This document shows positions 34,441 through 37,655 of a stretch of DNA of 64,000 nt, one piece after another (the first letter of the stretch is position 1; each line of letters starts with the position of its first letter). The notes under the pieces were generated by a model. The model was not told the origin of the DNA. It searched no databases and saw only the letters and a program-made list of their open reading frames with translations. The DNA comes from an uncultured Pelagibacteraceae bacterium (GTDB lineage Bacteria; Pseudomonadota; Alphaproteobacteria; Pelagibacterales; Pelagibacteraceae). Location: NCBI GenBank assembly GCA_902566975.1, contig CACFLA010000005.1, positions 8,375 to 72,374 of the forward strand, given 5' to 3'. The translations under genes were made by a program, and so were the position numbers.

Positions 34441-36093
34441 ATGCCGAAAATTATAAAATTTAATAATGAAGCCAGAGCTAAAATGCTTAAGGGTGTAGAT
34501 ACACTTGCAAATACAGTCAAAACGACACTTGGTCCAAAAGGAAGGAATGTGGTTATCGATAAATCTTACGGTGCTCCAAGAACAACAAAAGATGGAGTAA
34601 CAGTTGCTAAAGAAATCGAGCTTGAAGATAAATTTGAAAATATGGGTGCTCAAATGGTTAAGGAAGTTGCTAGCAAAACAAATGATAATGCTGGAGATGG
34701 AACAACGACTGCAAGTATTTTAGCACAAGCAATTGTCGGTGAAGGAATTAAATATGTTACTGCCGGCATGAATCCCATGGATATTAAAAGAGGTATTGAT
34801 AAAGCAGTCGAAAACGTTATTGACAGCTTAAAGAAAACCTCAAAAAAAGTTAAAGCTAATGAAGAAGTTGCTCAAGTTGGAACTATATCTGCAAATGGAG
34901 AAAAAGAAATTGGGGATATGATTTCAAAAGCAATGCAAAAAGTTGGTAATGAAGGTGTTATCACCGTTGAAGAAGCAAAAGGAATTCAAACAGAATTAGA
35001 TGTGGTTGAAGGAATGCAATTTGATCGAGGTTATTTGTCTCCTTATTTTGTTACAAACGCAGATAAAATGACAACTGAATTAGACAACCCATTAGTATTG
35101 CTTCATGAGAAAAAATTAACTAATTTACAACCAATGGTTCCATTATTAGAGTCTGTTGTTCAAGCTAATAGGCCTTTGATGATAATTTCTGAAGATGTAG
35201 AAGGTGAAGCTTTGGCTACGCTTGTAGTAAATAAACTTAGAGGTGGTTTAAAAGTTGTAGCAGTAAAAGCTCCAGGTTTTGGTGACAGAAGAAAAGAAAT
35301 GTTGGAAGACATTGCAATTTTAACTGGTGGACAAGTCATATCCGAAGATCTAGGTACTAAGCTTGAAAATGTTAAAATTAATAACTTAGGTTCTTGTAAA
35401 AAAGTAAAAATTGATAAAGAAAATAGTACATTAGTTGCTGGTACAGGAAAGAAAGCAGATATCGAAGCAAGATGTAATCAAATTAGAAAACAAATTGAAG
35501 AGACTACTTCTGATTACGATAAAGAAAAACTTCAAGAAAGATTGGCTAAATTAGCCGGTGGTGTTGCTGTAATAAAAGTTGGTGGCGCAACTGAAGTAGA
35601 AGTAAAAGAAAGAAAAGACAGAGTAGAAGATGCTTTAAATGCCACAAGAGCTGCAGTAGAAGAAGGTGTAGTAGTGGGTGGCGGATGTGCTCTTCTTTAC
35701 GCTTCACAAGAATTAGATAAGGTAAAAGTCAAAGGTGACGATCAGAAAGCTGGTGTAGATATTATTAAGAAAGCTTTACAGGCACCAATAAGACAGATTG
35801 CAGCCAATGCTGGAGTAGATGGTTCAGTTGTGGTTGGAAAGCTATTAGATGGAAAAAAACATACTCAGGGTTTTGATGCGCAGGAAGAACAATATGTCGA
35901 TATGTTTTCTAAAGGTATTATAGACCCGATGAAAGTTGTAAGATCGGCTTTGCAAGATGCTTCCTCTATTGCAGGTCTATTAATTACTACGGAAGCAATG
36001 ATTGCTGACAAGCCAGAGGAAAAAGATGCTGGTCCAGCTATGCCTCCTGGTGGAATGGGTGGTATGGGCGGAATGGGTGGAATGGGAATGTAA
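34441..36093 (+). CDS. groEL: Chaperonin GroEL
   Basis: DGTTTA motif and C-terminal GGM repeats. SD AAGGAG upstream. Confidence 0.98.
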
Positions 36094-36094
36094 T
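36080..36094 (+). repeat. Direct repeat copy 1, GAATGGGAATGTAAT (last groEL codons plus stop)
   Basis: Exact 15-mer match to 37641-37655, read directly from the sequence. Confidence 0.85.
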
Positions 36095-36144
36095 ACGTTT
36101 CCATTTAGAGAACACTCTAAAACTTACACTAAACAGAATTAGAA

Positions 36145-36176
36145 CCCCTGGAACAAAAGTTTCGGGGGTTTTTTTT
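36145..36176 (+). terminator. Rho-independent terminator downstream of groEL
   Basis: CCCCTGGAAC-AAAA-GTTTCGGGGG (10-bp stem including two G-U pairs) followed by T8. A second small hairpin TTTAGAG-AACA-CTCTAAA lies at 36104-36121. Confidence 0.7.
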
Positions 36177-36183
36177 GAATGTC

Positions 36184-36819
36184 CTAAGATATTTTTTTCC
36201 TAGAATTGTAAATATAATAGAAGAATAATAACAAAAAGAACATCGATAAAACGTTTGAAACCAATCCTAATACCAATATAGTAAATTTTCTTTCAACAAT
36301 TTCTTTAAGATCCATTTTTAAAATTTTAATATCATCATTGATTTTCTCGATCTCATCCATCAAATCGTTAAGAATTAACCCTGTATATCTAAAGTTGTGT
36401 AGTAATTCATCTTCTTTTGTTTGGATTTTTTCTGGATTTTCCAAAAGTTTATCAATTTCATCAAAATATTTAAGGTACTTTTCTTTCTCTTCTACATCAA
36501 TATATGGGTTGGAAAGTATTATTTTAAATTGATCTAATATAATATTTTTATTTCTTGATAAATCTTTTTTAAGAATTTCCTCTGTAGCATTCTTATTACT
36601 CATTTTGAGTCTTAAACTAGAATCTGTTTCTAATTTTACGTAGGTTTCATAATAAGCTTCAACAGCGTTTAAAGTTTCTGTTCTCTTAAAATCGTTTCTT
36701 TCAATTTGATTTTCCATTTTCCTTATAACTTGTTCTTTTTGAATAACATATTGATCTAATGCTTGAGAAATTATTTGAAATAGCCCTGCAATAATAATTA
36801 GATATTGGAATTTGTTCAT
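36184..36819 (-). CDS. Orphan 211-aa protein: N-terminal hydrophobic segment, K/E/D-rich helical domain, C-terminal TM plus basic tail
   Basis: ORF with a 4-nt ATGA overlap to the upstream ORF. No family recognised. Confidence 0.6.
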   Translation of the reverse strand: MNKFQYLIIIAGLFQIISQALDQYVIQKEQVIRKMENQIERNDFKRTETLNAVEAYYETYVKLETDSSLRLKMSNKNATEEILKKDLSRNKNIILDQFKIILSNPYIDVEEKEKYLKYFDEIDKLLENPEKIQTKEDELLHNFRYTGLILNDLMDEIEKINDDIKILKMDLKEIVERKFTILVLGLVSNVLSMFFLLLFFYYIYNSRKKIS

Positions 36820-37535
36820 AATCTTTTTTTATTTCCTCTATTAGTCATGACATCCGCTAGTACAATTAATGTTGTTGACAAAATTAGAATCAAAAAAGTA
36901 ATTAAATATATATTGGATGATTTTTTTGAAAGTGATGTTATCTTATTATATAAGATGTCTTCTCTTTGGAATAAGTCATTTAAAACTTTATCCAAATTAA
37001 AAATTAATTTGTAAGCACCAATAATTGTATTATTTGTTTGATTTTCAACAAATTTTCTATGAACTTCTTTTAAACAAGGTTTTGATTTTCTGTAGGTTTT
37101 GTTCCACCTTGAAAACGTCTTGTAATCATTTTCAATTTCTGAAAAAAGAACTGGTTCATAAAAACTTTGATTAGAAAAATTTTTTTGATAGTCCTTAAAA
37201 AAGTCATCATAAAAAGATGTGGTTCTCAATACATCCCATTGTTTTATACAATAATTTATTTCTCTGATTTCCTTATCCTCTATTAAATAAAAATCCTTTG
37301 CATTAAGCATTTGGGCTGTGCTATTTGCATAAAACCTGGAAAAAATTTTTTTATATTTATTCAAATATTTTTTTTCTAAATCTATTTCATCTATCTTTTC
37401 ATATATATTTGAAATTTTTTTCTCAAAATTAAGACCATAAATTGATAAAAATGCAGAAGATATAATAAAAACTAAAAATATCTTAATAAAAAGAATTAAT
37501 CTCACAGGAAAAATTTTTTTATTTTTCAATTTCAT
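36816..37535 (-). CDS. Orphan 239-aa protein with the same architecture (N-terminal TM, about 170-aa Y/F/K/N-rich domain with 2 Cys, C-terminal TM plus basic tail)
   Basis: ORF translationally coupled to the downstream orphan. No family recognised. Confidence 0.6.
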   Translation of the reverse strand: MKLKNKKIFPVRLILFIKIFLVFIISSAFLSIYGLNFEKKISNIYEKIDEIDLEKKYLNKYKKIFSRFYANSTAQMLNAKDFYLIEDKEIREINYCIKQWDVLRTTSFYDDFFKDYQKNFSNQSFYEPVLFSEIENDYKTFSRWNKTYRKSKPCLKEVHRKFVENQTNNTIIGAYKLIFNLDKVLNDLFQREDILYNKITSLSKKSSNIYLITFLILILSTTLIVLADVMTNRGNKKRL

Positions 37536-37640
37536 AAAACATTTATAGTGAGATATTTCAAAATCTTCAATGTAGTTTGCTTAAATTGTTTATTAAGTTT
37601 GAGTAAGAGGGACTAGATAAATAAGACCTAATTACAATGA

Positions 37641-37655
37641 GAATGGGAATGTAAT
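37641..37655 (+). repeat. Direct repeat copy 2, GAATGGGAATGTAAT, in noncoding DNA 5 nt from the hisG stop
   Basis: Exact 15-mer match to the groEL 3' end (36080-36094). Confidence 0.85.

Follow-up and report, generated by a model that had tools for sequence, protein, structure and literature searches.

Classical mobile elements are, to our knowledge, generally said to be missing from SAR11 genomes, whose many small flexible islands are put down mainly to homologous recombination. We analyzed a 64,000-nt stretch of contig CACFLA010000005.1 from an uncultured Pelagibacteraceae bacterium (the window; positions are those of this whole stretch), in which an exact 15-bp direct repeat of the 3' end of groEL brackets a cassette of two genes, orfA and orfB, between groEL and the convergent gene hisG. 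From sequence comparison, we judge it likely that a tyrosine-integrase system targets the groEL stop codon with this 15-mer as its attachment (att) core and that the cassette in the window belongs to that system as a member or remnant without an integrase. Related loci carry other such cassettes, singly or in arrays, as well as larger elements that encode the integrase, and both were compared with the described systems closest to them.

Integron arrays and clusters of attC sites lacking integron-integrases (CALINs) resemble the groEL arrays in that mostly single-gene, recombinase-less cassettes stand in order at one site with recombination-site-like junctions between them, and in that the newest cassette would lie next to the insertion point. 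They differ in that neither an attC-type R''-L''/L'-R' hairpin nor GTTRRRY was seen when the groEL junctions were read, a reading that was not a formal scan. In addition, the arrays described here are bordered by groEL, with no attI/Pc platform or adjacent intI; every cassette comes with a promoter and a terminator, and most cassettes face away from the insertion point; and the integrase combines a beta domain at its N terminus with putative arm sites, as in lambda and Tn916, rather than having the architecture of IntI. A second likeness is to the cis-mobilizable elements (CIMEs) of Streptococcus thermophilus, which reportedly accrete at the 3' end of fda through the integrative and conjugative elements ICESt1 and ICESt3. 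As with CIMEs, a housekeeping gene that codes for a protein has the att site in its 3' end, the att-flanked elements have no recombination module of their own, and tandem accretion with an integrase-bearing element of the same att occurs. The window's cassette has its att core and, in diverged form, its right-arm (R) sequence in common with integrase-bearing elements at the same site; accretion with such an element was seen for other cassettes (loci L277 and L281), and the window's array is a single cassette. Unlike the case of CIMEs, a search of these loci turned up no conjugation module; host, integrase family, and target gene all differ; each cassette has just one or two genes, and an array has five or more cassettes; and their mobilization is something that we infer.

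Tycheposons, the tRNA-anchored islands of Prochlorococcus (Hackl et al.; bioRxiv 10.1101/2020.12.28.424599), were compared through published descriptions, as were, for Pelagibacter, the VEIMEs (integrative mobile elements encapsidated in virions) and phage satellites (Eppley et al. 2022, PMC9618062; Biller et al. 2025, PMC11876622). Tycheposons likewise inhabit a streamlined marine oligotroph thought to be without classical mobile elements. They too are cargo elements with a tyrosine recombinase that integrate at the 3' part of a conserved gene and leave partial copies of the target, and their successive integrations move older elements deeper into an island where degenerate remnants pile up. 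However, their target is a tRNA or tmRNA and their core is about 40 bp, compared to the stop-codon end of groEL and about 14 to 15 bp here. Most units at groEL are 0.5 to 2.5 kb long, with no integrase and with their own promoter and terminator, and the backbone of the larger elements has a resolvase along with uncharacterized small proteins; in L277 and in L282 to L289, Pfam detected no replication module with a primase or helicase. As far as the searchable text of the Pelagibacter papers goes (PMC9618062, PMC11876622), tyrosine-recombinase, tycheposon-like, and VEIME elements have been reported in that genus; VEIMEs are, like the elements at groEL, small tyrosine-integrase elements integrated in Pelagibacter, and their module 2 encodes HNH endonucleases, as does the L277 element. 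The same text places their integration "frequently near tRNAs" and does not mention groEL. Small SAR11 islands (Molina-Pardines et al. 2025, PMC11796062; "gene indels" of Wilhelm et al. 2007, PMC2217521) are also one- or two-gene insertions (median, 1.4 kb) between core genes, with G+C contents below that of the core and presence/absence polymorphism within populations, and four of them have partial tRNA repeats that mark cassette insertion. They differ in that no canonical mobile elements and only one integrase (GI-35) are reported there among 61 islands. Searchable literature text, supplements aside, makes no mention of groEL as an attachment site or of relic-bounded cassette arrays, and a cassette system at the groEL stop codon is apparently undescribed.

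Empty and filled alleles at the groEL stop codon

A scan with hisG as the query and one genome per species gave 80 Pelagibacteraceae loci of 12 kb each. The closest relative, L001 (single amplified genome AG-426-L15), belongs to the same species and is 97.2% identical to the window over 12.7 kb. It reads ...GGTGGAATGGGAATGTAA|TCCCTA|tca..., which is the left flank of the window, one copy of the repeat, and the right flank. The earlier note on this DNA, made from the letters of the window, had removed one repeat and the intervening DNA in silico and obtained a convergent groEL/hisG junction with a 6-nt spacer; L001 carries this product verbatim, and the exact empty site is also present in L006, L007, L014, and L015. 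When empty and filled sites were aligned, as the earlier note had suggested, the groEL/hisG spacer was 2 to 6 nt long in 60 of the 80 loci, across groEL identities of 86 to 100%, and 15 loci held unrelated inserts of 604 to 5,239 nt (5 unresolved). Neither orfA nor orfB was found in any of the 80 species representatives. These precise and widespread majority empty sites, together with the lack of both genes in all 80 loci, indicate at the level of sequence that the empty state is ancestral and that the window holds a 1,561-bp insertion (36095 to 37655, one core copy counted). The filled allele is not confined to the window: L290, an independent contig from Tara data that shares 95.3% identity with the window, has it with both 15-mers intact, and in another lineage (L147) a cassette copy 97% identical ends in a relic that matches at 14 of 15 positions. 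The G+C content of the cassette was 0.21 to 0.25, compared to 0.31 to 0.41 in the flanks, a difference in line with that published for flexible genes of SAR11 (PMC11796062).

The 15-mer, GAATGGGAATGTAAT, occurs exactly twice in the window, where the next-best match has two mismatches. Its left copy consists of the last groEL codons, TAA, and a T, and groEL keeps its normal ...GGMGM* end; the right copy stops 5 nt short of the hisG stop codon. Both placements were exactly as the earlier note had given them, and so were the contents of the interval, with a hairpin, a terminator, two overlapping minus-strand genes, and a 105-nt spacer. A repeat of this length is not rare by itself, as the window (29.5% G+C) has 67 exact direct repeats of at least 15 nt, nearly all of them A+T only, and by our estimate about one 15-nt repeat pair with five G or C would be expected in the window by chance. 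The estimate for a 15-nt homology arising by chance at the junction is, at this base composition, on the order of 1e-8. The significance of the 15-mer thus lies in its position, which the exact empty sites make significant, and not in its length; because relatives hold the exact empty site, the 15 bp are the junction duplication of the insertion.

These data bear directly on the suggestion that there was no insertion at all, that is, that the genes are ancestral, that the 15-mer is a chance or GGM-repeat match, and that relatives underwent unrelated deletions. The many exact repeats in the window and the internal repetitiveness of the GGM-coding tail of groEL fit such a history, but the empty sites are base precise and are the majority state, orfA and orfB are missing from every species representative, and many unrelated inserts carry the same relic of the groEL tail (see below). 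A target-site duplication by a transposase would explain the repeat itself; no transposase was found, however, and no terminal inverted repeats were noted when the cassette ends were read, as the earlier note had also reported. Furthermore, the 5' part of the relic differs consistently from groEL (ATGA or ATGC versus ATGG), unlike a target duplication, and 15 bp is longer than typical target-site duplications. We regard both of these explanations as extremely improbable.

Modular cassettes, groEL-tail relics, and arrays

All of the inserts began on the groEL side with a 30- to 50-nt spacer and a strong terminator (module X, of which there are several families), and many had at their hisG end a groEL-tail relic, ATG[ACT]GAATGTAA, and then the native spacer. 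Relics that were exact or had one mismatch were found on the hisG side in L008, L010, and L036 and at internal junctions in L019, L027, L038, L044, and L046, where the next X followed directly. After the TAA of each relic came either the native spacer and hisG or the left end of another cassette. The plan of a cassette is a terminator module, one or more genes that are usually on the minus strand, a promoter/arm module, and the relic GAATG-N-GAATGTAA. The earlier note had likened the repeat to an att core duplicated at the 3' end of groEL, and this reading was strengthened by dozens of unrelated cassettes that close with the same relic. The chromosomal target is formed by the last codons of groEL (...GGM GM*), whose terminal 12 nt, ATGGGAATGTAA, were identical in 65 of 75 related loci. 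No known RNA or tRNA was detected at the site, where Rfam gave only subthreshold matches to terminators; the closest tRNA, that for His, lies at a distance of 3 kb. The core was also inspected for similarity to other recombination sites, giving only a trivial AATGTA match to dif, the Xer site, and no GTTRRRY of an integron attC.

A metagenome scan with the commonest form of the relic, CCAGTATGAGAATGTAA, returned at least 120 loci, 75 of which were classed as SAR11 type (77 junctions). Among the matches listed, all 77 junctions diverged exactly after the TAA; 67 of them entered seven families of X terminators (28, 16, 11, 4, 3, 3, and 2 junctions), 3 entered a lineage-specific native spacer and hisG, and 7 were unclassified or too short. 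A fourth native-spacer junction, L265, was removed by the G+C filter. The X module of the window (TACGTTTCCATTTAGAGAACACTC...termA) adjoins groEL in L027, L038, L147, and L290 and directly follows relics in L153, L160, L228, and about 25 metagenome junctions. Arrays could be long: in L219, which has the upstream synteny of the window, groEL was followed by five single-gene cassettes of 0.5 to 1.1 kb, and in L232 it was followed by four cassettes. Their cargo was diverse, with 254 open reading frames (ORFs) falling into 161 clusters.

The 100 to 150 nt before the relic (module R) hold the ribosome-binding site and start codon of the minus-strand gene, so that each such cassette is a full transcription unit antiparallel to groEL. 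The two ends of a cassette were related to each other: left- and right-end 9-mers co-varied, with a mean of 4.0 shared within a cassette compared to 1.2 between cassettes. A unit had short direct repeats immediately inward of its left end and again in its R, with GTGATGAAGGA in many small cassettes, GTAATGAACAA at both ends of both 9- to 10-kb integrase elements, and other variants in other units. These co-varying repeats are laid out like arm-type sites around the core of an attP, and we consider them putative arm sites. The idea that R is purely a recombination arm was dropped, since R is a promoter and 5' untranslated region (5'-UTR) as well, and the two roles are inseparable in silico.

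Several individual inserts had features of their own. In L184 (5860 to 5926), a long groEL-tail relic follows an ABC-ATPase-like ORF within the array and is a second example of crossing over far upstream of the core normally used. A gene for a 620-aa TypA/BipA-like GTPase lies on the groEL strand between groEL and hisG in L025 and L030 (inserts of ~1.97 kb) and in L086 (1 to 276), and its C terminus runs through a groEL-tail relic of ~45 nt, giving a translation GTPase with a chaperonin-like GGM tail. L052 and L065 have an 839-nt insert in which no ORF of at least 50 aa starts with ATG; it shares 78% identity with the end of the L046 insert that faces hisG (3683 to 4429) and could represent a pseudogene, a gene with another start codon, or a unit that is noncoding. 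Defense-like cargo was frequent (L046, L033, L282 to L289, and L181), including a Bsp6I-type restriction enzyme with a C5 methylase, HsdM, N6/N4 methylases, a 1,120-aa Cas4/RNaseH-like/SF1-helicase protein, and DUF2779 nucleases.

Integrase elements and the probable movement of cassettes

A protein of 404 to 407 aa was found among the array ORFs of L184, L158, L238, L157, and L181, with its gene on the groEL strand. Its stop codon lay ~100 nt before a relic in the first four of these loci, and in L181 the gene is possibly disrupted and no relic directly follows. The sequence between the stop codon and the relic is the commonest R module in L238, and in L157, measured to the core, it is the closest homolog of the 105-nt spacer of the window's cassette (76 of 137 positions identical); by eye, the last ~30 nt of the two are roughly 85% identical (GACTAGAT-AAATAAGACCTAATTACAA versus GACTAGATAATATAAGACTTAATGACAA). 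The window's X module also occurs in cassettes of arrays that contain the integrase.

The family to which this protein belongs (402 to 407 aa) comprises 386 protein clusters at ≥59% identity, mostly unannotated. In 22 sequences, the motifs GFRPGLE (R239), K274, Y-S-I-R352-H-T-Y-A-T, and Y384 were invariant. Tyr replaces the first His of box II (Y349-x-x-R352-H353), and the usual H/W position is apparently Asn. Some family members have a precomputed PF00589 hit, and the NCBIfam XerA model gave 1e-6. An AlphaFold model (mean predicted local distance difference test [pLDDT] score, 81; predicted template modeling [pTM] score, 0.68) matched 47 Protein Data Bank (PDB) entries with E values of ≤1e-3, all 47 of which were tyrosine recombinases (Tn1549 Int, Cre, XerH, XerA, lambda Int, and IntI), with TM-scores of 0.35 to 0.6. 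The modeled structure identifies the 402- to 407-aa protein as a divergent tyrosine recombinase with a core-binding and catalytic fold. We take its N-terminal beta-sheet domain for a counterpart of the one with which integrases of the lambda and Tn916 types bind arm sites.

Larger elements that encode this integrase occupy the same site. In L277, a Pelagibacter genome contig, the groEL stop codon is followed by X, a resolvase, the integrase, R, and, ~9 kb downstream, CAGTGAATGAGAATGTAA, after which come five more cassettes. L281 is similar, with the integrase element in tandem with cassettes, and in L285 a second integrase element begins directly after the groEL tail. The backbone of these elements consists of a small serine recombinase (PF00239; E values of about 1e-27 to 1e-30) and conserved proteins of 206 to 220 aa. 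Their variable cargo includes restriction-modification or nuclease genes, such as an HNH gene in L277, and minus-strand cargo between the integrase and R encodes a MORN protein in L277 and a DUF2779 protein in L282. The earlier note had recognized no recombinase, which agrees with our finding that the window has none; the larger same-site elements with the same ends encode one.

Three side observations concern these elements. In L277 (3446 to 3457), groEL ends in ...MRM* (ATGCGAATGTAA) instead of ...MGM*, and integration appears to have altered its penultimate residue; the variable position of the core may therefore land on either side, which would fit a crossover region that includes it. In L282 to L289, a core-like AAATGAGAATGTAA at about 8698 (7435 to 8698, depending on the locus) stands between the divergent genes for the resolvase and a 206- to 208-aa protein and could be a regulatory or secondary site. 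In L278 and L279 (3393 to 3600 onward), the integrase and R end in ATGAGAATGTAT, beyond which stands a surface-polysaccharide cluster (glycosyltransferase/Wzy) that exceeds 9 kb; these loci may belong to the groEL site, or the large hypervariable region may have a second target in its vicinity.

In the mechanism that we favor, the last codons and stop codon of groEL would be a landing pad, used across SAR11, for mobile elements of one family, which have a divergent lambda-type tyrosine integrase of three domains (N-terminal beta, core binding, and catalytic). Autonomous elements of ~9 kb or more would carry the integrase, the small serine recombinase, conserved small genes, and variable, often defense-like cargo, and their core, GAATG-N-GAATGTAA, would recombine with the identical groEL tail, restoring groEL and supplying it with a new terminator. 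The small cassettes would have only X, the core, and one or a few genes, most often on the minus strand, together with the R promoter module of these genes; in many such cassettes, the matching direct repeats of X and R are placed where arm-type integrase sites would lie. The integrase would catalyze their insertion in trans, by way of circular intermediates, and successive insertions at the groEL stop codon would push older cassettes toward hisG, giving arrays with R, relic, and X at each junction. Inserted cassettes could then pass from one lineage to another by homologous recombination in groEL, in hisG, and in the X and R modules that they have in common, and they could be lost by core-by-core excision or by deletion. 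The window's cassette would have been inserted in trans or left behind by a larger element and then spread by homologous recombination. Its R arm has diverged, and left-arm repeats are absent from it; it is probably a stripped and now poorly mobile member.

A number of results weigh against this reading. The integrase scored below the gathering threshold of Pfam PF00589 (20.6 compared to 27.1 bits; E value, 4e-4). No homolog of the integrase or resolvase was present in the window, and none of the 80 genome loci encoded an integrase, so that any catalysis would take place in trans or would have taken place in the past; likewise, there was no recombinase within the 15 genome-derived inserts, and Pfam detected no recombinase domain in OrfA or OrfB. 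No relatives of the integrase were found in IMG/VR with the two peptide patterns used. The circle or tandem junction of the window's cassette, predicted to read ...CCTAATTACAATGAGAATGGGAATGTAATACGTTTCCATTTAGAG... and sought as CAATGAGAATGN{0,6}TAATACGTTTCC, was not found in assembled metagenome contigs; a near-equivalent junction of a sister cassette is present as an array junction in L153. The lack of left-arm repeats and the diverged R arm of the window's cassette belong here as well, as does the double use of R modules as ordinary promoter and 5'-UTR regions, since their conservation need not then reflect binding by a recombinase. Finally, the position of the crossover was not uniform: the relics of the window and L147 have an extra GGAATG or TGAATG unit and those of L025, L030, and L184 are ~45 to 60 nt long, and a strict site-specific enzyme would give a single register. 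A phage attP was also considered as a counterpart of the core; a scan of viral contigs for ATGHGAATGTAATCCC gave 59 matches, about the chance level, none of which resembled the junction units.

The irregular register is accommodated by an explanation in which no recombinase takes part. Incoming DNA, delivered by transformation, vesicles, or transduction from a donor whose groEL was already followed by the cassette, would be anchored in the highly conserved groEL by homologous recombination and joined on its other side through short homology between the relic (...ATGAGAATG...) and the groEL tail, a form of homology-facilitated illegitimate recombination in which the relic is a portable microhomology and not a recombinase site. 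The right copy of the repeat could then be a register-shifted join, in which a relic ...CAATGAGAATG paired with the upstream GAATG of GGTGGAATGGGAATGTAA to give CAATGAGAATGGGAATGTAAT, as observed; variable relic lengths are tolerated, and recombinase-less cassettes confined to the groEL side of the junction are explained. Islands without canonical mobile elements are reported for SAR11 (PMC11796062), in keeping with this explanation. The last ~200 nt of groEL hold a slight excess of the differences from L001 (11 of the 50 in the whole gene), which also favors it, but L001 remains closest to the window on either flank as far as the junctions, and no clear imported recombination tract was seen around the cassette, only this mild dip at the 3' end of groEL. 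Joining by short homology does not predict the co-varying repeats of the left and right arms and leaves the origin of the first relic-bearing cassette unexplained, and it is further opposed by the sharp breakpoint exactly after the TAA in more than 70 junctions and by an integrase family that is physically tied to the same ends at the same site. We consider it unlikely that the insertions arose in this way.

The integrase reading can also be extended. SAR11 would then have an integron-like means of gene capture that depends on a tyrosine integrase of the lambda type and not of the IntI type, with hundreds of mini-cassettes, each having a complete attP (arm repeats flanking a 14-bp core that mimics the groEL end), mobilized in trans by the integrases of rarer autonomous, possibly satellite-like elements, and with the window's cassette as one such unit. 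We offer this extension tentatively, as a possibility that we do not favor at present.

The window's cassette, its genes, and the significance of the site

OrfA and OrfB were predicted, by inspection of their sequences, to have N- and C-terminal transmembrane segments and a charged middle. Neither gave a Pfam hit above the cutoff or a PADLOC match. The earlier note had called both genes orphans; they indeed match no known family but are not strict orphans, as homologous clusters exist for orfB (7) and orfA (30) in a collection of 5.8 billion proteins, all from marine metagenome or SAR11 data, and orfB has 23 representatives among 1.84 billion proteins; both families are tiny and confined to data of SAR11. 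The ratios of nonsynonymous to synonymous substitution rates (dN/dS) were 0.14 to 0.18 for orfA and 0.15 to 0.21 for orfB, values which indicate that both are real genes under purifying selection. In relatives, orfB is linked to a gene for a 229-aa NaChBac-type Ion_trans protein (PF00520; E value, 1.5e-47) that lies before or after the pair, and this recurrent linkage suggests a channel-associated role for orfA and orfB. Among metagenome contigs with the window's cassette, the gene order is Ion_trans-orfB-orfA in L081 and L086 and orfB-orfA-Ion_trans in L084, and in L086 a relic of the 3' end of orfA lies upstream of Ion_trans; the arrangement looks like a circular permutation or a resolved tandem copy. 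Concatemeric forms such as those described for VEIMEs (PMC9618062, PMC11876622) could explain these permuted orders.

When the pair was sought at other loci, as had been proposed, it was found in other populations with different neighbors and end modules: the right-hand neighbor of orfB-orfA was hisG, a termB cassette, a termA cassette, or a TypA cassette, and the X and R modules differed too, in two sets. This variety counts against the cassette being simply the decayed cargo end of a once complete integrase element, one that never moved by itself, that lost its integrase and backbone by deletion after integration, and that spread vertically and by flanking homologous recombination only, with the repeats as the attL and attR of an old event. 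In favor of such an origin, X, cargo, R, and relic would remain if an element like L277 or L282 lost its backbone; left-arm repeats are missing from the window's cassette; and the cassette is old, its copies at 79 to 88% nucleotide identity having decayed relics. However, regular arrays of 0.5- to 1.1-kb single-gene units with complete X, R, and matching arms are hard to obtain by random deletion, and we find such an origin quite improbable. We retain the broader reading, that the cassette is an integrase-less member or remnant of a tyrosine-integrase system at the groEL stop codon.

The features of the locus are listed in Table 1. The hairpin at the left junction has a stem of ~12 pairs (z = -5.2 for a 113-nt segment by RNA folding), and similar short inverted repeats were present at most filled sites in the junction sequences inspected. 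The co-translated genes orfA and orfB overlap by 4 nt. The A6-hairpin-T9 terminator beyond the right junction, which the earlier note had described as suited to groEL, is real; it is also bidirectional, it lies inside the 3' coding end of hisG, a position that had gone unremarked, and it is the native groEL terminator at empty sites. Common to groEL (at empty sites) and hisG, it encodes ...KKAAKLQPF..., a case of extreme compaction.

Table 1. Features of the groEL-hisG locus in the window
Feature	Position	Strand	Basis or remark
groEL, 550 aa	34441..36093	+	ORF list; Pfam Cpn60_TCP1, E=1e-82
Left 15-bp core copy (attL side), GAATGGGAATGTAAT	36080..36094	+	Exact match; equals family-wide core GAATG-N-GAATGTAA plus T
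Imperfect inverted repeat/hairpin	36080..36106	+	Core pairs with first 12 nt of cassette; groEL stop in loop
Left-end module X, spacer and strong terminator (36141-36176) oriented for groEL	36095..36183	+	Terminator scan, fold
orfA, 211 aa	36184..36819	-	No known family
orfB, 239 aa	36816..37535	-	No known family
Right-end module R, 105 nt, upstream of orfB (promoter/5'-UTR)	37536..37640	-	Diverged homolog of L157 arm
Right 15-bp core copy (attR side), relic-type ATGA before it	37641..37655	+	Exact match
Native 6-nt groEL/hisG spacer, TCCCTA	37655..37660	.	First T is last repeat base; same in L001, L006, L007, L014, L015
hisG (ATP phosphoribosyltransferase), convergent on groEL	37661..38338	-	Pfam HisG, E=2e-34; 100% aa identity to L001
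A6-hairpin-T9 bidirectional terminator	37677..37709	.	z = -3.5 and -6.0 (both strands folded); kept in empty-site alignments

The locus provides a concrete, testable mechanism of gene gain for SAR11, made up of four parts: a 14- to 15-bp core in an essential conserved gene, a large and mostly unannotated integrase family, modular arrays, and precise empty and filled alleles within one species. It is a marker site for tracing gene flow in natural SAR11 populations, and its integrase, attP, and attB are candidate parts for genetic tools in an organism that is hard to manipulate. Beside the tycheposons of Prochlorococcus, it is a second case of such flexible-genome organization in streamlined oligotrophs, and it means that the conserved C-terminal GGM motif of a protein can act as an integration target, as tRNA genes do.

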